From: Candidatus Obscuribacterales bacterium
GTDB taxonomy: Bacteria; Cyanobacteriota; Vampirovibrionia; Obscuribacterales; Obscuribacteraceae
Direction: 5' to 3'
Assembly: GCA_965228855.1 (NCBI GenBank)
Contig: CBDDIJ010000003.1
Span: 1,920,001-1,984,000, forward strand
Length of the DNA stretch: 64,000 bases
Position numbers and translations under genes: made by a program. Under the pieces are notes generated by a model, which saw only the letters and a program-made list of their open reading frames with translations, had not been told where the DNA came from and made no database searches. Of the stretch, positions 21,043 to 29,610 are shown piece by piece (positions within the stretch are counted from its first letter, which is position 1; each line of letters opens with the position of its first letter).

Positions 21043-21180
21043 TGGTCAGTCTCTGAAGGGTTTCTGATTGAAGTCTCTCGCAAATCTCGCGAACAAACAA
21101 CAGCTTGAATAAATTCGCGATTGACAGACTTTGCTTAGCTCATTACCGAGTTTTCTTAATATTGTTGCTTTTGCTGAATG

Positions 21181-21200
21181 ACTTTGATAATATTGAAAGT
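21181..21200 (+). promoter_or_regulatory. Putative ArsR operator overlapping an extended -10
   Basis: Imperfect palindrome ACTTTGATAATATTGAAAGT abutting ATG 21201, containing TG-n-TAATAT; no RBS. Confidence 0.45.
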
Positions 21201-21935
21201 ATGAAACTAAAAGCCGCAAACGACCGAATATCGGCATTAGGAAATACCACACGATTGGTGATTCTGAAACTCTTGAGAGTTCACTCAACTGGCCTTTCCG
21301 CAAGCGCAATAGCAGAGAAGCTGGAGATACCGGCTCCAACCCTGTCATTTCATATGAGTCAGTTGGAGAAAACGCGGTTAGTGAGCGCTAAACGACACGG
21401 ACGTTCGTTGCTTTACACCATAAACGCTGGTGGGTTGACAGAGTTGGCACAATTTCTGACAGAAATAATACCAGGAGATACCATGCAGAAGACGCTAAAG
21501 CCAGTAGTGGCTGTTTCAAGCAGATACTTGCCGTTGCCTTGTGCAACGTGCGGTGAGGACTTAATACCAGATGCGGGTCGCGCGATCATTGCTTTCGCCG
21601 AGACTTTTCGTCGCGAGGACAGACCGAAGGAGACTCACGGTGTTTACGTCTCTCATAAGGGCAAGTGTGATCAGATCATGCGAGCCCAGTGGGACAACCG
21701 GGAAACACTGACTGGGTGGTCGGAGTTGGAATCTTTTACGAGCCCACCGGGATTTTTGCGACTGTTACTTACGGAGCTAAATCAAAGGCAAAGGGGCGAT
21801 TTGTACACTGAAGAGGCTCATAAGCAGTTCAGAGACATCGCCATGTCTCTTTCTCAGCTGGCACTTCGAGAAATGAGCGAGACCGAGAGAGAACGCTTTC
21901 TTGAGGACCGAGAACTTGATTTTATGAGGTCTTAA
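21201..21935 (+). CDS. ArsR/SmtB HTH fused to a Cys/His-containing C-terminal domain
   Basis: ALG..TRL.I.KLL...GLSAS.IAE.L.IP.PTLSFH..QL....LV...R.GR...Y; C-terminal CATCG...H..C. Confidence 0.75.
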   Translation: MKLKAANDRISALGNTTRLVILKLLRVHSTGLSASAIAEKLEIPAPTLSFHMSQLEKTRLVSAKRHGRSLLYTINAGGLTELAQFLTEIIPGDTMQKTLKPVVAVSSRYLPLPCATCGEDLIPDAGRAIIAFAETFRREDRPKETHGVYVSHKGKCDQIMRAQWDNRETLTGWSELESFTSPPGFLRLLLTELNQRQRGDLYTEEAHKQFRDIAMSLSQLALREMSETERERFLEDRELDFMRS

Positions 21936-22322: not shown

Positions 22323-23486
22323 TTACTCATCTACGTGCACTTCAAATCGAGTTGGCATCATAATCACCCAGAACCTTCCTCGCTTTTCCATCACTCCAAC
22401 CACCGTCACAATTTGTCCATCTCGATGAGCATCACACGCGAGGTGATAGTCATCTGCTTGAAGAAAGACACGGATGTTGATGATTCGGTCTTCTCGCGCG
22501 AAGTAGCCCGATAACGTCACGACCCTGTCCTGATGCGAATCTTCGGGATCCTTCTGAACCTCTCGGTCTTCAGATTCTTGGAGCCTTAGCTGAGTTATCG
22601 AGCCGGTAATTCTAACCAATTCTGGTCTCAGCGCTGGTCGGAGTGCAGTAGCCGCCATTGACAAATATCTCACAGTAGAGTGAGAGACTTTAATCGCACC
22701 GACGGAAGCGACGGAATCAGATGGGGCAAGGTCGGACGCCCATGAAGTACGAAATTCAAATCCTTCAGCATCGGCGACTGAGACCATTTCTACGATGGCA
22801 TCGCACATATTTGCATTCAGACCAGTCGCGTAATTCGCAATAATTGGTCCAGGGTCCTGTTGCGCCCTAGCGAGGTCAGCTTGTGCAAGACCTCGTGTAA
22901 TTCTCTCAACGACTCGCCGAGAGAACGGAATCGCTTTTTCTAACGGTAAAACCGGCAACGTGAGTTGACCGACATCGACGGGCGACTCTACGGTAAATCC
23001 CATGCTCCCCGAAAATGTTTGACCAAATCGACAATAACCCGCATGTGTTATTCCGATCGCAGACAACTTAACAAAGTGCGGTCGAGGAACAGCTTCCACA
23101 GTTGCTGCGCAAGACACTAATTCGGTCAACTGTTCGATAATTGTCGATGCAACATTGAGCGGCACGCTATCTTTTTTCTGCATAACTCGAACTCGAAATA
23201 TATCCAAGTCCTGTGCCACCATATCAGCCACTACATCTTCTGGCTTTCGGTGGGTCGTAACAGACAGTAGCTCAACAATTCCGCTCAGTCGTTCGATCCA
23301 ATCGAGAACATCATCGCTAGTGGGAAAGACTATAGTAAGTGGATTTCCTCGGTCGTCGTTTGGTCCACTAAACGTCAGTAGATTCTTGTTTTTTGATTTG
23401 ACGCGCTCCCACCCATTCCGTTCCAAGTAAGTCACAGCCTGGGATACAGAAATCTTTGTCAGCAATGTTTGATTTAAACCGACCAT
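22323..23486 (-). CDS. Hypothetical protein, partner of the DUF4365-like nuclease (possible C-terminal OB-fold)
   Basis: 387-aa ORF coupled by a TAATG overlap; YLERNGW N-terminus; V.ITG.I..L...Y..AC.AH..G..V.V.G C-terminus. Confidence 0.75.
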   Translation of the reverse strand: MVGLNQTLLTKISVSQAVTYLERNGWERVKSKNKNLLTFSGPNDDRGNPLTIVFPTSDDVLDWIERLSGIVELLSVTTHRKPEDVVADMVAQDLDIFRVRVMQKKDSVPLNVASTIIEQLTELVSCAATVEAVPRPHFVKLSAIGITHAGYCRFGQTFSGSMGFTVESPVDVGQLTLPVLPLEKAIPFSRRVVERITRGLAQADLARAQQDPGPIIANYATGLNANMCDAIVEMVSVADAEGFEFRTSWASDLAPSDSVASVGAIKVSHSTVRYLSMAATALRPALRPELVRITGSITQLRLQESEDREVQKDPEDSHQDRVVTLSGYFAREDRIINIRVFLQADDYHLACDAHRDGQIVTVVGVMEKRGRFWVIMMPTRFEVHVDE

Positions 23487-24004
23487 TAGACTACTACCCC
23501 ATCCTTTACCAACTCGATTAGGTTTAGAAGCCCTTCAGGCGTAAGCTGATTAGCCTTAGGAAGGTGAACGACCTGCGTTCCTTCGTTCGGAGATTTCTCT
23601 CCGGTGATAGACTGCCAATAGCAACTATATCGTAGAAGAACCTCTTGTGCTGAATGTGTTATCCACTCGGGTTTAAGTTCTGGCAAGTGCAGAACAATCA
23701 ACACACACGGAGTACCTCGACCTTGACGGTCAATCAAATAATTATAGGTCTGCACGTCAAGGTCGTATGCGATAACATCCTGGTTTCGAAGTTCTCGACA
23801 ATTGATTGACGCCTTCAACTGAAAATGAACGCAATGACCACTCTCTCGAAGCTTGCCTTCAATCATTGAGACTTCATGGAAAGAACCGTCCACACCGTAG
23901 TCAAAATTGTGTGCGAAATTGAAATTTATCCCCGCAGCTGATGCGACAGCCGCTACATGCGCGATACTGAGACCTTCCTCCATGTGCTGATAAGTTATTG
24001 CCAT
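23486..24004 (-). CDS. DUF4365-like PD-(D/E)XK nuclease
   Basis: E..S.A.V.AVA..AG, DYGVDG, FQLKAS, YNYL, P.VLIV..LP, YW.S..G; GGAGG RBS before ATG 24004. Confidence 0.75.
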   Translation of the reverse strand: MAITYQHMEEGLSIAHVAAVASAAGINFNFAHNFDYGVDGSFHEVSMIEGKLRESGHCVHFQLKASINCRELRNQDVIAYDLDVQTYNYLIDRQGRGTPCVLIVLHLPELKPEWITHSAQEVLLRYSCYWQSITGEKSPNEGTQVVHLPKANQLTPEGLLNLIELVKDGVVV

Positions 24005-24184
24005 GCGCCTCCAGAAGGAACGGAAGAAATGGTTATTCGCTTGAAAATTTTCCCAAGTTGTCAGATTACGAATCAGAAGCGTCACTCAAGCAAAGCTGAG
24101 CAATATGAGCAAGTAGCACTTACATTGCACTTCCAGATAAAAAAATGGATATCTGGGCGACTCCCAAAACCCTTGCTGAAAAAC

Positions 24185-24226
24185 AACCCTCCGAGAGATT
24201 CGAACTCCCGACACCCTCCTTAAGAC
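24185..24226 (-). repeat. att-site direct repeat (3' half of tRNA-Arg)
   Basis: AACCCTCCGAGAGATTCGAACTCCCGACACCCTCCTTAAGAC matches 29539-29580 at 40/42 nt; the adjacent CTGAAAAAC is also shared. Confidence 0.9.
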
Positions 24227-24376
24227 TGACGAAGTTTACCATTTCTCCACTGTTTCCCAAACACTCTCTGTGTTTATAATGGCGCAGCCAATGAGCGTCT
24301 TCGGAACTTTCGGTCTAATCGAAAGTCACTTCTAATACCTCAACTTTCATGTCCTAGGTAGGGCTGGAGACCAGAA

Positions 24377-25623
24377 ATGAATCCAGTAATATCATTTAGC
24401 TTCCGGCTCAGCGCCTTAGATGATCTATCTTGCCCAGCTGGACAAAGACATCTGCGCGTCATGGACAAAGGTCCAAGGTCTCGGTCTGCTAGTTCGACCG
24501 TCCGGCGCAAAAACCTATATCTATTATCGACGCTTGCCGGACAACAATGAGTCGCCGAGAAAGATCTGCGAATTGACGATCGGAAGATATGTCGATGTCA
24601 CCATAGAGCAAGCGAGAAAACGAGCGACCGAGATGAATCACGCTGCGGGTCTCGGAAAAGATCCAAGCAAAACGATGCCGCAGTCACCAACCTACGGATA
24701 TCTGTTTGCGAGATACATTGAGGACTATGCCAGCCTTCACAACTCAACGTGGCGAGAAGCAGAGAAAAACTTCAAGAGATATTTTTCTACATTCGCAAGT
24801 ATTTCTACATCATCGATCTCATGCGGATCGGGGGGGGCGGCTTCATCCGGAATACACAAAGGAAATAACCCTTGTGTCGTCGTAAGCACGTCCAAAACTC
24901 TTGCACGCGAGAGATTTCTGCAACCCGGCGACGAATATAAAAGATTTGCAGAAGCTCTCGTCGACGAGCCAAACGAGTCGCTACGCGATTTCTTATGGAT
25001 GTGTTTGTTTACTGGAGCTCGCTGCTCGAATGTTCTGAGTATGCTATGAGAAAATATCAATTTTGATCTTCAACATTGGCGCATTCCACTTACCAAAAGT
25101 GGAAATTCTCAGACAATTCCGCTGACATTAAATGCAATGCGAATTCTGAGAACACGCAAAACGTCTGCCGATGCGCATGATGTCTGGGTATTTCCTTTTG
25201 ACCGAAAAGGCTGGAAAACAAAGGAACTCGGGCACCTAACCTCGCCCTGGAAAGCATTTTTAAAGAATAATCCAACGGGCTGGAATTTCGTATTTTAGAA
25301 TCCACGATCTTCGGCGCACCGCTGGCAGTTACATGGCTATTCAAAACGTCAGTCCAACGATCATCAGAAAAGCGCTTGGGCACAGGTCTCCACAATCAAC
25401 GGCAATCTATGCTCTCTTAACTCAAGATCCAGTTCGAGAAGCACTCGAAAACGCACAAGCAGCTTCAGAAAATTCTGGGAAGCTGTTGGATTTAAAACCG
25501 CGAGGCGGAAGAATTTGGAGACCTAAAGGCTCAGAGCAGAGCGTTTTAGAAACTGCTCTACATAAACTTTGGCATAAAGATCCGATGCAACGCGTTTACC
25601 AAGACCGTGATATTATCCAGTAA
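24377..25623 (+). pseudogene. Tyrosine integrase with Arm-DNA-binding N-terminus, inactivated
   Basis: GGAG+ATG 24377; frameshift near 24465; GLGLLVRPSGAKTY...TIGRY arm domain; TGAR; in-frame TGA at 25047 (ML*ENI, likely TGG>TGA); frameshift in the T-run near 25260; HDLRR, LGH, TAIYA. Confidence 0.9.
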
Positions 25624-25717
25624 ATGCGCCAACTTCTTTTGACTTTAGACGGAAAGGGAACTGTAGAATTAAATGCAGGCGTTTTAGGCGCGGAATTTTT
25701 TCCAGCTTGTAATAGAA

Positions 25718-26044
25718 ATGGTTTCCGACGCGTTGAAAACGATAAATGTGGAAACCGGTCCAGGTTTCCTCTCCGTTGAAGACGAAAATGGATACGTGCA
25801 GGTCGCTGGAGATGGTCGGGAATTCGTCGTTGAATGGAGCGAATTTCACGGAGACGAAACGACGCTATATGCTGCGGGCAAACTGAATGGTGACACCGCT
25901 GATTCCGAATTTCGCGCTCTTCATGGAACTATCAGCATAAAAGAACGCGAACGCCTGAACCTTAGCAGCGCAGCCTTCATCTGCTCAGAATTTGTTGAGC
26001 AAAGAGTTCGACCGGACAGTTATACTTGGCGTGAAATTATTTGA
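25718..26044 (+). CDS. Hypothetical acidic protein, possibly immunity-like
   Basis: 108-aa acidic beta-rich ORF ending in P...YTWREI. Confidence 0.55.
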   Translation: MVSDALKTINVETGPGFLSVEDENGYVQVAGDGREFVVEWSEFHGDETTLYAAGKLNGDTADSEFRALHGTISIKERERLNLSSAAFICSEFVEQRVRPDSYTWREII

Positions 26045-26178
26045 GTCCACGTACTACTCGCCGACAGGTCCTCACCCACTTCACATGACCAGCCCCGAAT
26101 GCGATTACCAGGTATTACCTGTGGTGCAGCGTTTCAACGCTAATGCGAGAGCAGGTAAAAACTCTCACTCAGCGAGGG

Positions 26179-26205
26179 TTGCCAGAAGCTTTCGCCGGGT
26201 ATAAT
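26179..26205 (+). promoter_or_regulatory. Putative promoter of the toxin operon (leaderless)
   Basis: TTGCCA-15 nt-TATAAT; 7 nt separate the -10 from ATG 26213; no RBS. Confidence 0.5.
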
Positions 26206-26212
26206 GCTCGTG

Positions 26213-26437
26213 ATGATTCCAATTCCCGACGACTGCTACTTGCACTCATGCGAATCGCTAGGATTTGTTTATGGAAGCAAACGCTGGAAGGATGGCAATG
26301 GACACTTACTCACCTGGGATAGTCAGCACGGTGAGATTGAAGTGTTCAATGCGAGAGGCAGACATCTAGGAGCCGCAAACGCTGTGACAGGAGTCATTTA
26401 CAAACCACCAACCAAAACGCATAGGATAAAGGTTTAG
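26213..26437 (+). CDS. Stand-alone colicin E3/pyocin S6-like cytotoxic RNase domain
   Basis: KRWKD..G.LLTWDSQHGEIEVFN.RG.HLG.....TG matches the ColE3 WDSQHGELE catalytic motif, with D, H and E intact. Confidence 0.85.
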   Translation: MIPIPDDCYLHSCESLGFVYGSKRWKDGNGHLLTWDSQHGEIEVFNARGRHLGAANAVTGVIYKPPTKTHRIKV

Positions 26438-26458
26438 CTCTACTTCGGGGTTAACAAC

Positions 26459-26791
26459 ATGGCTAAATCAGTCAAGGAAAACTTTTTTGAATTGTACTCC
26501 CAGGGCAGAGCTCTGGCAGACGAAGCCGACGACTACATCGATGAATGGCACGAATCTGGTGAAGAAGTCACTTGTGAGCTGCACGAATTCCTTGGTCTAA
26601 AATGGAACGAATATCAAGCATTCGTTTCTGACCCGACAGTCTTACCACTAATTCTAAAGTCGCGAAACGAACACAGACCACTAAACAACGTCATTGAGCT
26701 TGCAATGAAGGAAGACGACCGAATTGCGGCTCGGGCACAAGATATAACGATACTTCGGAACTGGCTGTTAGAGCAAAGAAGCCAGTCTTGA
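26459..26791 (+). CDS. Acidic 110-aa protein, candidate antitoxin
   Basis: D/E-rich N-terminal half (ADEADDYIDEWHESGEE..ELHEFLG...EY); lies between toxin and protease; TTGA overlap with the next gene. Confidence 0.75.
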   Translation: MAKSVKENFFELYSQGRALADEADDYIDEWHESGEEVTCELHEFLGLKWNEYQAFVSDPTVLPLILKSRNEHRPLNNVIELAMKEDDRIAARAQDITILRNWLLEQRSQS

Positions 26792-27792
26792 GTGATATCA
26801 CTTCAGTCGAGTTAAACCTGGCGAGACATATTTCTCGACGTTTTAAACTCACGCCTCCTCTCACTCATACACTGCTAAACGTCGTTGAATATTTTGCAGA
26901 CGTGGAGATAGGCGATCTTCCGGTTAAGGTGGACGGCGCCTGCCTTAAGCGCCAAGGCGAACGACCTACAATTCTTATCAACAAAAGACAAATTGAAACG
27001 CGCAAGTTGTTCACATTGGCTCACGAGTTCGGTCACGTGTTAATCCCAACCCACTATGGAACCATTGTAGATGAATTCGTTGATGGTTTCGATTATTCGC
27101 CAACAGAAGCGCAAGCAAACCGATTTGCATCTGAGTTATTGTTGCCCCTTGCTTGGGCGAAGCAGTTTGTAGAAACAACGGACGAACCCGGGAAGTTGCT
27201 AACGACCATATCTAAGCGAGCGAAGGTTTCATTATCCTGCGCGGCGTACAGGCTACCAGACATCCTTGGCACAGGATATGTGTTTGCCGAAATCTCAAAC
27301 GACAATAGGATTAAGGGCGCAATATCCACTACCTATAAAATTGCTGCGCCACAGCGAGGCGCGATAGTCAGGGAGCCGGAATCTCGCTACAAGACCGCGA
27401 CAAAGCAATGGTCCTTCAAACGTGAAGATAGCACTTATTGGTGGTGGCAATTTGATACCGCAAGCCCCTTGGTCAAGAAGATAGAAACAGCATCAGACAT
27501 ACTACGAGATATCTTCAATGACTGCGGAGTTCCAGAAGAAGCCAAGCAATCGCTTCGTGGCTCAATTGGCGGAGTAACCGGCGGCAGCGTAAAACGTGAC
27601 GAATCCGCCGAACAAGGAGCCTCTCGTATCAAGGAGGCATTTGTCCGAAAGGCAAAAGTTATTCCGAACTACGAAGACAAAAACAGGGTTCATTACCAAA
27701 ATATCCTCAGACATCCTCGATTTGAGGAGTATTCAAAATTAGTAGCATCAGAGCTAATTGCCAAAGCTTATTGGATTGCGAAGAGTGACTGA
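26788..27792 (+). CDS. ImmA/IrrE family zinc metallopeptidase (M78)
   Basis: RKLFTLAHEFGH (HExxH), EAQANRFASELLLP, VS...AAYRL; no N-terminal Xre HTH; long C-terminal extension. Confidence 0.9.
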   Translation: MSDITSVELNLARHISRRFKLTPPLTHTLLNVVEYFADVEIGDLPVKVDGACLKRQGERPTILINKRQIETRKLFTLAHEFGHVLIPTHYGTIVDEFVDGFDYSPTEAQANRFASELLLPLAWAKQFVETTDEPGKLLTTISKRAKVSLSCAAYRLPDILGTGYVFAEISNDNRIKGAISTTYKIAAPQRGAIVREPESRYKTATKQWSFKREDSTYWWWQFDTASPLVKKIETASDILRDIFNDCGVPEEAKQSLRGSIGGVTGGSVKRDESAEQGASRIKEAFVRKAKVIPNYEDKNRVHYQNILRHPRFEEYSKLVASELIAKAYWIAKSD

Positions 27793-28446
27793 CTGAGACA
27801 AGAACTATTTCTTTGTCCTGCATGAAGTTTTTGGACTGCCTTCAGAGCGATCTCCAGTTCTCGCAAAAAAATCCGGGTCTGCTCCCATTGAATGGACTTT
27901 GAGCAGCGTACATATCGCCTCGTTGAATTCCGCTGTTTTACTTAAGCAGCGGATCCATACTGACAGCAATCATAAAGAGCAGATTCTATGTCGCTGTGTC
28001 GCTGGCGAATTACTCCATAGTTATTGATTGATCTCGATGTCCGACCTTAGCCCCTTTCACACGCACTCCTGAAGTCCGAAAAATCAACTCACTGCACATT
28101 CGCGTCATCACGACGGATGCGCATTGACAGTACGTCTAGAGGGCAACACACTGCGAATCGATAGAAAACTTTGTAGACGATCTGCCAACGCGCATCACTC
28201 CCGGAAGAACTAGAGAGATTTCGATTGTTTGAATTTATTTTGTCAGGACAGGATAAAGAATGTCGGCACGAGTGCCGAAATCAGCCATCAGCAAGGCTTC
28301 CGCTGTCGACAACGTCAAATCAGTTGTCGACAAGTACCTCTAAACCATCAGCGATTGACATTCCAGCAGCAGACGGTGAAGTGCAATTGATAGAATTGAG
28401 ACATCTTCGAAGCGAGAATAATCAGATGACTTGCGCTTGTCTCAGC

Positions 28447-28902
28447 ATGGATACCTTGCTCGACTACATCGAGCGATACCACTCATCAACACCCGCCTCG
28501 GTGAATGCTTCCGTCTGTGAAGACTTCGAGAGAAACTTTGGACGAATGCCCACGGACTTGGAGTATTTGTACTCTCAATGTGCATCGCTCTCTCTCTTTA
28601 ACGATAAAGTTGTGATACTTCCGTTAAGCGATCTCTCCTGGGCGAACGAGGCGGTTTTCGGTAAAAATCATACCAATCAGTTCTCGACGACCTGCGTCGC
28701 ATTCTGCAGATTTGATACTGGCGGCTACGTGGGCTACGAATTGCCACCGACGGGCTCAGCGAATACCTCCTTTAAGGATCTCGATTCGTTTTTCGAGAAC
28801 GAACCAACGACTATCAGCCGATGTTTGACAAATTTTCTCACAAACTTACTGGTGTCAGAGGGAGAACTCTTTTGGCTTGATCCAGGCTACAAACATCATT
28901 AG
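28447..28902 (+). CDS. SMI1/KNR4 (SUKH) family immunity-like protein
   Basis: PAS.....FE..FG.MP.DL..LY, then F...DTGGYVG...LT.FL pattern. Confidence 0.65.
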   Translation: MDTLLDYIERYHSSTPASVNASVCEDFERNFGRMPTDLEYLYSQCASLSLFNDKVVILPLSDLSWANEAVFGKNHTNQFSTTCVAFCRFDTGGYVGYELPPTGSANTSFKDLDSFFENEPTTISRCLTNFLTNLLVSEGELFWLDPGYKHH

Positions 28903-28953
28903 ATACTTACTCGATTGCTTTTTCGACAAGCAATTCACCACGTCGAGGTAATT

Positions 28954-29476
28954 GTGAGTTTAGAAACTAGGTGGCAATCGATTTATGAAACCGCTGGCTA
29001 TCTCGCAGCTCATGCCGTTTGGCATCTTCATGAAGAAGATATCGTAATTCCGGTGCTCGCGTATGAGGCGCAAGGTCAGCGCATTATCGAAGAAATTTTG
29101 GCAAACACAATGGCGGAGTTGGAAACTGGCATCGGAAAAGCGAGTGTGGCGTTAGCAACTAATCCAATGGCGGCGTCGTTCGCTCTCCTGATCTTTCCTG
29201 CATCTATTGAATTAAATCAAGAAGCACGAACTTGCATAGTCATCGACATGTGCGACTACGCCTCCGAATTAACCTCATCAGCCAGACTTGTCGTTCCATT
29301 CACGCTCACAAAAAAAAATGTTTGGAAAAGAATTGGTGCTCCATCCTCCTGGGCAGATGGATCGCAGTGCGGATTTTGACGTCCCCTTGGCGATGCAAAG
29401 TTTTTTTAAAGGAGTCTACGACCATTCTGAAGGCGCTGCAATTTGGAACAAGTGCCTGGATCAGTCTCAGCTATGA
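28954..29476 (+). pseudogene. Hypothetical protein split by a +1 frameshift in an A9 run
   Basis: GAGGT+GTG 28954. Removing one A from 29310-29318 joins ...PFTLTKK to MFGKELVLH...FFKGVYDHSEGAAIWNKCLDQS*. Confidence 0.6.
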
Positions 29477-29538
29477 TTAGTCTAAATTTTATGTAGGACC
29501 CTTGTAGGGCCAACAAAAACTCAAATCCTGAAAAACTA

Positions 29539-29610
29539 AACCCTCGGAGAGATTCGAACTCCCGACACCCTCCTTAGGACGGAGGTGTTCTTCCACTGAA
29601 CTACGAGGGC
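29539..29610 (-). tRNA. tRNA-Arg(CCT)
   Basis: Cloverleaf GCCCTCG-TA-GTTC-AGTGGAA-GAAC-A-CCTCC-GT[CCT]AA-GGAGG-GTGTC-GGGAG-TTCGAAT-CTCTC-CGAGGGT-T; CCA not encoded. Confidence 0.93.

Follow-up and report, generated by a model that had tools for sequence, protein, structure and literature searches.

IrrE-type peptidases have been described as cutting in front of an arginine. CapP is reported to cut CapH at F82|R83 (bioRxiv 10.1101/2022.04.27.489752, 10.64898/2026.05.16.725639), IrrE to cut DdrO at L106|R107 (PMC12828697), and VapB52 to cleave itself with single-stranded DNA (ssDNA), probably at an FR motif (PMC13273310); phage resistance has been reported for the VapBC52 toxin (PMC13273310). 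For colicin E3, the proposed active site is D55/H58/E62 (PMC3482391), and four distant members of the PF09000 family are reported to cleave 16S rRNA in the colicin E3 manner (PMC9304027). Here we describe a three-gene locus in which an IrrE-type peptidase adjoins a colicin E3-type nuclease. It lies in the window, a stretch of 64,000 nucleotides (nt) from Candidatus Obscuribacterales bacterium (GCA_965228855.1, contig CBDDIJ010000003.1, positions 1,920,001 to 1,984,000), which two public assemblies match letter for letter, either of which may be the window's own source. We consider it fairly probable that the locus is a trigger-protease toxin-antitoxin cassette with a latent degron. The 110-amino-acid (aa) partner would bind and block the bare colicin E3-type RNase; the peptidase, probably on sensing ssDNA, would cut the partner in trans between Ala91 and Arg92; the cut would expose an ssrA-like C terminus and send the antitoxin to ClpXP; and the freed nuclease would cut 16S rRNA, stopping translation. 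The triad has the following features.

26213..26437, + strand: stand-alone colicin E3-type RNase of 74 aa (77 aa from an ATG at 26204), assigned by PF09000 and by alignment with colicin E3 in the PDB.
26315..26341, + strand: WDSQHGEIE catalytic motif of the toxin, from the sequence.
26459..26791, + strand: acidic, all-helical 110-aa partner of an unnamed family, predicted antitoxin from its position 3' of the toxin in homologous loci.
26717..26734, + strand: D87-R-I-A-A91|R92, predicted peptidase site preceded by a predicted latent ssrA-like degron, from motif conservation.
26788..27792, + strand: M78 peptidase of 334 aa, of the IrrE/CapP type with a peptidase-helix-turn-helix (HTH)-GAF order and an extra helical C-terminal domain, from profiles and a structure model.
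27022..27036, + strand: HEFGH zinc motif (H79-E80-x-x-H83; third ligand, E107), all four residues invariant in 41/41 peptidases.

The toxin scored 46.5 bits against PF09000 (cut-off, 22) and aligned with the colicin E3 chains in the PDB, WDSQHGE included; catalytic D39, H42, and E46 and a second histidine, H54, are all present (77-aa numbering). An in-frame stop at 26156-26158 closes the frame on the upstream side, and therefore no domain is fused in front of the toxin. Receptor, translocation, and secretion domains were sought and not found on the window protein, and the family mostly stands alone, with no more than 30 open codons ahead of the PF09000 domain in 65 of 80 GTDB toxins and more than 70 in 5. 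Against PADLOC-DB 2.0 the toxin matched only NsnC (E value, 0.014). Judged by the behavior of the PF09000 family, it likely cuts 16S rRNA, for which A1493/G1494 would be the expected site, and halts translation. A single position weighs against this: His73 stands where the family has Arg (117/120), with an Arg one place on, and we assume that the conserved C-terminal Arg of PF09000 has a functional role. Because of His73, the long branch that the window toxin occupies in a tree of toxins and partner cores, and the decay of its genomic island, the window copy might be weakened, which we regard as rather unlikely.

Two independent collections were scanned for the three genes: GTDB, anchored on the toxin (best 80 of 148 loci kept), and metagenomes, anchored on the partner (best 80 of at least 453 loci, ranked by likeness to the full-length window partner). 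The partner lies directly 3' of the toxin in 79 of the 80 GTDB loci, the sole miss being 56 nt from a contig end. In the metagenome set the toxin lies upstream of the partner in 72/80; the other 8 comprise 3 without upstream sequence, 2 with a cut or split toxin, and 3 with none found despite upstream room (L131, L140, and L147), which count against our reading. A gene order common to both collections is not chance, and at the level of sequence this is the conserved toxin-antitoxin gene pair of type II systems. An intact peptidase gene stands third in 48 of the 80 GTDB loci (none in 28, a remnant in 1, undecidable in 3), and triads occur in eight named phyla. In 51 of 141 loci the toxin-partner pair survives with no peptidase; the peptidase is therefore, as far as gene content can tell, an add-on trigger of the pair. 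With this amendment, the comparison supports a co-conserved triad, for which the initial annotation had proposed a synteny search. Some loci carry tandem, partly broken toxin-partner repeats (L014, 4397-6023; L176; L185; L186), and four called proteins contain both the toxin and partner domains (P0166, P0168, P0171, and P0126), either as true fusions or as frameshift artifacts.

The strongest evidence for how the peptidase acts is a motif in the partner. All 53 partners encoded next to a peptidase have A91, R92, and W102. The motif was scored as [AV]AR[^P] with a Trp 8-13 residues on, leaving out of the counts loci with less than 250 nt downstream or a cut partner (9) and one without a partner. 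Among deduplicated loci, it is present in 84/84 with a peptidase, in 6/6 with peptidase fragments, and in 7/51 without. The two collections agree, with 49/49 versus 2/28 in GTDB (the window included) and 42/42 versus 5/27 in the metagenomes. Across 37 full-length partners from peptidase-less loci, W30, G46, and E51 are kept in every one (37/37) and W102 in 34, while at the position of R92 Arg is kept in only 18 and Pro follows in 16. As read from these alignments, decay of the motif without the peptidase is specific to the A-R site. On a tree of the toxin plus the partner core without its tail (120 rows, after removal of 21 that were fragments or had no full toxin), the peptidase changes state 18 times and the motif 17 times. 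Seven independent pairs fall on well-supported branches, of which on average 5.6 change in the same direction and 0 in the opposite one (median P, 0.031).

Several points pull the other way. GTDB loci served to define the motif, and the metagenome set repeats the result; 7 peptidase-less loci keep it; the tree is short (142 columns, with 47 of 117 forks open) and the P value of the pair test reaches 0.125; and the motif could be a binding site instead of a cut site. Taken together, the data make it highly probable that the peptidase acts at the A-R motif, where the initial annotation had guessed, in the C-terminal RIAAR.

The peptidase belongs to the family that cuts in this way. It scored 62.6 bits against PF06114, its best PADLOC model is capP (82 bits), and NF052239 stays below threshold (39.8 bits; cut-off, 335). 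Profile searches found no Xre domain on it, at the N terminus or elsewhere, and its TTG start overlaps the partner stop by 4 nt. A structure model with a predicted local distance difference test score of 88 matches IrrE (3dti; E value, 2.6e-9), PprI with ssDNA (8sln), and CapP (7t5t), with E values of 2.6e-9 to 3.3e-7, and places a peptidase, an HTH, and a GAF-like part before a helical domain (residues ∼235-333), itself without a match. The earlier description of a translationally coupled HExxH peptidase without an Xre HTH, akin to IrrE and CapP, was therefore accurate, as was that of a bare colicin E3 catalytic core without delivery domains, given the PF09000 score and the upstream stop. Position 95 (Asp in 31/41, Cys in 6/41) aligns with a Cys that lies in the switch-loop region of Thauera CapP, and R72 takes the position of CapP R90, the single groove residue compared. 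Two Bacillota peptidases (L005, 4566-5855; L057, 5481-6848) have a duplicated GAF-like part and 429-448 aa, and their cut partners would end in KLVA. Against a DNA signal, ssDNA is reported to have given no stimulation of ImmA and Rir, which lack GAF; unlike these, the window enzyme has a GAF part. We lean toward ssDNA or DNA damage as the trigger.

Because CapP and IrrE, and probably VapB52, cut before Arg, a cut at A91|R92 is the natural inference, in spite of a P1 residue that is Ala here and Phe or Leu in the three precedents. Such a cut would remove only 19 residues. At 14 of the 51 peptidase-less loci the partner ends before the motif, and toxins from loci without a peptidase have retained the catalytic residues (39-41/41 per position); provided that these genes are expressed, the core would be enough, and release of the toxin probably takes more than clipping. 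Peptidase-less loci may, on the other hand, be silent. The residues before the Arg point to a further step. The predicted new ends (n = 84) are LAA in 39, MAA in 21, IAA in 14, AAA in 4, VAA in 3, LVA in 2, and MVA in 1; P4 is Ala, Pro, or Arg in 73/84, P5 is Leu, Phe, Tyr, or Trp in 46/84, and the last four residues lack an acidic residue in 84/84. An ssrA-like end is present on 1 of the 84 uncut partners, and in long frames of the window's own genome such a triplet precedes Arg in 758 of 133,661 cases. A screen of C-terminal tags gave a ClpXP consensus of [LFYW]-[LAR]-L-A-A, with FKLVA degraded like YALAA (PMC10862746); 12 predicted cut ends match this consensus exactly, one of them being YALAA itself. 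The host genome encodes clpX and a transfer-messenger RNA whose tag frame ends in RAAA. In LexA and RseA, the initial cleavage exposes an Ala-Ala-type terminus to ClpXP. In RsdA, a VAA degron for ClpXP is reported to be uncovered by the first cut (PMC8165232).

Cleavage in front of the Arg would create an ssrA-like C terminus, which suggests ClpXP as the finishing step. This is weakened by the AA part of the motif, which enters the YALAA score by definition, and by the window pentamer itself, DRIAA, which is not among the strong forms and begins with a polar residue of the kind disfavored in the screen (PMC10862746). Helix packing or peptidase subsites, not ClpX, could also lie behind the hydrophobic residues of the motif. 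We nevertheless judge the degron step somewhat better than an even bet. The best-surviving alternative keeps the same cut and dispenses with the degron: loss of the last helix would itself loosen or unfold the antitoxin and release the toxin, as proposed for VapB52, the precedent for release by a cut alone (PMC13273310). W102, a tail residue, never varies among triads and is kept in most full-length peptidase-less partners, and the tail may therefore have a structural role. The tail-less partners at 14 loci and the intact catalytic residues of toxins from peptidase-less loci speak against this explanation, as does the resemblance of the residues before the Arg to ssrA-like tags beyond the AA part, and we consider it improbable. 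The earlier proposal that a protease cut of the 110-aa partner releases the toxin gains a well-conserved predicted cut site, while a cut alone is probably insufficient.

The partner was described at the outset as strongly acidic, and at 110 aa it has a net charge of -10 and an isoelectric point of 4.65; mean charges are +3 for the toxins and -9.5 for the partner cores. No match was found in Pfam, NCBIfam, PADLOC, or the PDB, yet the family comprises 1,215 clusters at a threshold of 50% identity, and four PHROGs, whose functions are unknown, match it. The partner model is all-helical, with A91|R92 where two helices meet. Kinship with the colicin E3 immunity families (Im3, Imm-Cloacin, and Imm45) was considered and rejected, there being no Pfam or PDB match and the known families being reported as alpha+beta (PMC3482391). 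The partner is therefore no relative of the acidic immunity protein of colicin E3, to which the initial annotation had pointed. From the place of the 110-aa protein in the locus and its charge, we hold with considerable confidence that it is an antitoxin that blocks the toxin.

The partner might instead be a repressor like CapH or DdrO, whose cleavage turns on transcription of the toxin. Repressors are the best-studied substrates of IrrE-type enzymes, the LHEFLG segment of the partner presumably resembles an HTH, and KorB is among the weak rows of a Foldseek search with the partner model (E value, 2.7). Profile searches of the partner found no HTH, and no Xre HTH repressor lies next to the triad as in CapP-CapH, IrrE-DdrO, and ImmA-ImmR; we regard a repressor as quite unlikely. 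Less probable still is an orphan toxin-immunity cassette from a polymorphic toxin system, with the peptidase as an incidental neighbor. Rhs, Hint, and colicin proteins often carry PF09000 at their tip, and other small ORFs of unknown kind lie in the window island. Most toxins of the family, however, have hardly any open frame ahead of the domain, the motif has followed the peptidase across its repeated changes of state, and colicin E3 immunity families are alpha+beta where the partner is all-alpha. That the peptidase is itself the antitoxin and cuts the toxin, as is said of RosmerTA, with the partner as an adaptor docking through AAR, is very improbable: RmrA models do match the peptidase in PADLOC (E value, 1e-11), but the toxins of 41 peptidase-less loci keep their catalytic residues and the conserved Arg site sits in the partner.

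What the antitoxin cassette is for is less clear from its surroundings. Anti-phage action is plausible because of the precedents and of prophage copies, and we give it an even chance; a role in DNA-damage stasis or addiction is about as likely. Gene neighborhood weakly backs abortive infection. Of 28 triads, 5 have a PADLOC match within 3.5 kb (type I and III restriction genes, SoFic, DRT8, and RmrA), and the nearest genes include integrases, HEPN and Schlafen domains, and often housekeeping genes, so that the association with defense islands is weak. Full triads are also found on viral contigs, e.g., L005, where we take the flanking genes, from their motifs, to be an integrase and an HNH-like/terminase-like region. 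Tail-less partner cores occur in viral contigs, alone or fused to other domains, as well as in 62 phage records, the majority from phages of Mycobacterium and Gordonia. Tail-less cores, alone or fused, are likewise seen in phage genomes without the toxin at L094, L095, L098-L109, and L192-L194. By sequence, the phage cores could serve as decoy antitoxins or simply be a domain that phages use promiscuously. Gordonia phage Phabuloso encodes a toxin with a HicA-like-annotated N terminus and PF09000, followed by a partner-core fusion, between an immunity repressor and a short ImmA-like protease; this arrangement is a possible route by which the toxin-partner pair met an M78 enzyme. The genes concerned, gp52-gp50 (L191, 3481-5306; also in Kamaru and LitninMcQueen), are annotated as HicA- and HicB-like. 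A fuller scenario, which we put forward tentatively and do not think probable as a whole, is that an ssDNA-sensing peptidase uncaps a cryptic ssrA tag within a new antitoxin family, ClpXP frees the colicin domain inside the cell, and the tail-less phage cores could be uncleavable decoys.

The triad lies in a 5.4-kb island (24185-29583) at tRNA-Arg(CCT), bounded by a 45-nt repeat. The island also contains a broken integrase and has a G+C content of 0.468 against 0.514 for the genome. Its remaining features are as follows.

24185..24229, strand not assigned: 45-nt copy of the tRNA-Arg 3' end, one attachment (att) site of the triad island (direct repeat D2, 93% identical).
24420..25623, + strand: broken tyrosine integrase in pieces 24420-25049 and 25333-25623, with Arm-DNA-bind_3 on the first piece.
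26179..26205, + strand: TTGCCA-15 nt-TATAAT just 5' of the toxin start, from the sequence.
29539..29610, - strand: tRNA-Arg(CCT), with the other att site at 29539-29583, from tRNA and repeat calls.

The second integrase piece is presumably so, on the basis of a motif. No ribosome-binding site was seen before the toxin start, and a leaderless start is possible in the window copy only. The TTGCCA-TATAAT box does not appear in the output of a promoter scan that requires a spacing of 16-18 nt, and such a box is not conserved upstream of the toxin (8/51 homologues against a 10% background). A search of 40 relatives turned up no toxin, and one of 300 genomes from the phylum no partner; the cassette was therefore likely gained horizontally, as far as these sequence comparisons go. 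Three further island ORFs (25718-26044, 28225-28902, and 28915-29379, + strand) have no Pfam match; by eye we take them to resemble orphan immunity proteins, that at 28225-28902 being presumably SMI1/KNR4-like. Directly outside the island att repeat, PADLOC candidate PDC-M02A/B, a DUF4365 gene and its partner, occupies 22323-24085 (- strand; E values, 5e-53 and 6e-82). At 21105-21935 (+ strand), an ArsR-type HTH continues in frame into a domain that bears Cys and His residues and cannot be placed in any known family, perhaps two fused or abutting genes. Ser/Thr kinases with PADLOC PD-T4-6 matches were found in 5 of 20 random windows of the same genome (L197, L199, L210, L212, and L213), which looks kinase-rich.

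If our reading holds, the colicin E3 domain, otherwise known for attacking other cells, is here an intracellular effector with its own trigger, and an IrrE-type enzyme acts in trans on a nonrepressor. The case would also give, at residue level, an example of how an antitoxin can be destroyed in response to a signal, a long-debated issue in the toxin-antitoxin field; it proposes a function for a large unannotated family that is also common in phages, and it may point to a natural source of the decoding-center damage mended by RtcB2-PrfH.

Among named systems, RosmerTA is alike in that an M78 peptidase adjoins a toxin, and RmrA models match weakly. It reportedly has two genes, with RmrA, which carries an N-terminal HTH, as the antitoxin. 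Since the peptidase is said to be the antitoxin there, RosmerTA, offered as a parallel by the initial annotation, is a poor model for the triad. The cut-uncovered ends of LexA and of anti-sigma factors are alike as ClpX signals, but these proteins are reported as transcription regulators, not nuclease antitoxins. The three-component systems of COG2856 (Makarova et al. 2009, PMC2701414) share the predicted protease cleavage of an RNase-toxin antitoxin; they differ in having an Xre repressor with RelE or PIN toxins, and the main text of that paper never uses the word "colicin." Compared with colicin E3-Im3 and with Tox-ColE3 beside Imm-Cloacin or Imm45, as described in PMC3482391 and PMC9304027, the triad has no receptor or delivery domain, an unrelated all-alpha partner, and a trigger protease attached. 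CapP-CapH (the bioRxiv reports cited above) and IrrE/PprI-DdrO (PMC12828697) share the peptidase-HTH-GAF fold, the trans cut before Arg, and the position of the switch loop, whereas their reported substrates are HTH repressors and their output is transcription; the triad enzyme adds a helical domain and has mostly Asp at the switch position. Closest in logic is VapBC52 of M. tuberculosis, in which an ssDNA-activated IrrE-type peptidase disables an antitoxin, probably before an Arg, and so frees an RNase (PMC13273310). VapBC52, as reported, comprises two genes, with an antitoxin that carries the peptidase and cleaves itself and a PIN toxin that acts on tRNA; the triad has three genes, a separate non-HTH antitoxin, a colicin E3-type toxin, and a predicted exposed degron. 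As the initial annotation had supposed, no named system covers it: none in PADLOC-DB 2.0 has all three genes matching, and the full-text literature covered, most subscription papers lying outside it, holds no description that we found. The triad follows the logic of VapBC52 and CapP-CapH yet is a member of neither; what is predicted to be new is the type of toxin, the antitoxin family, the trans cut on a nonrepressor, and the hidden degron.
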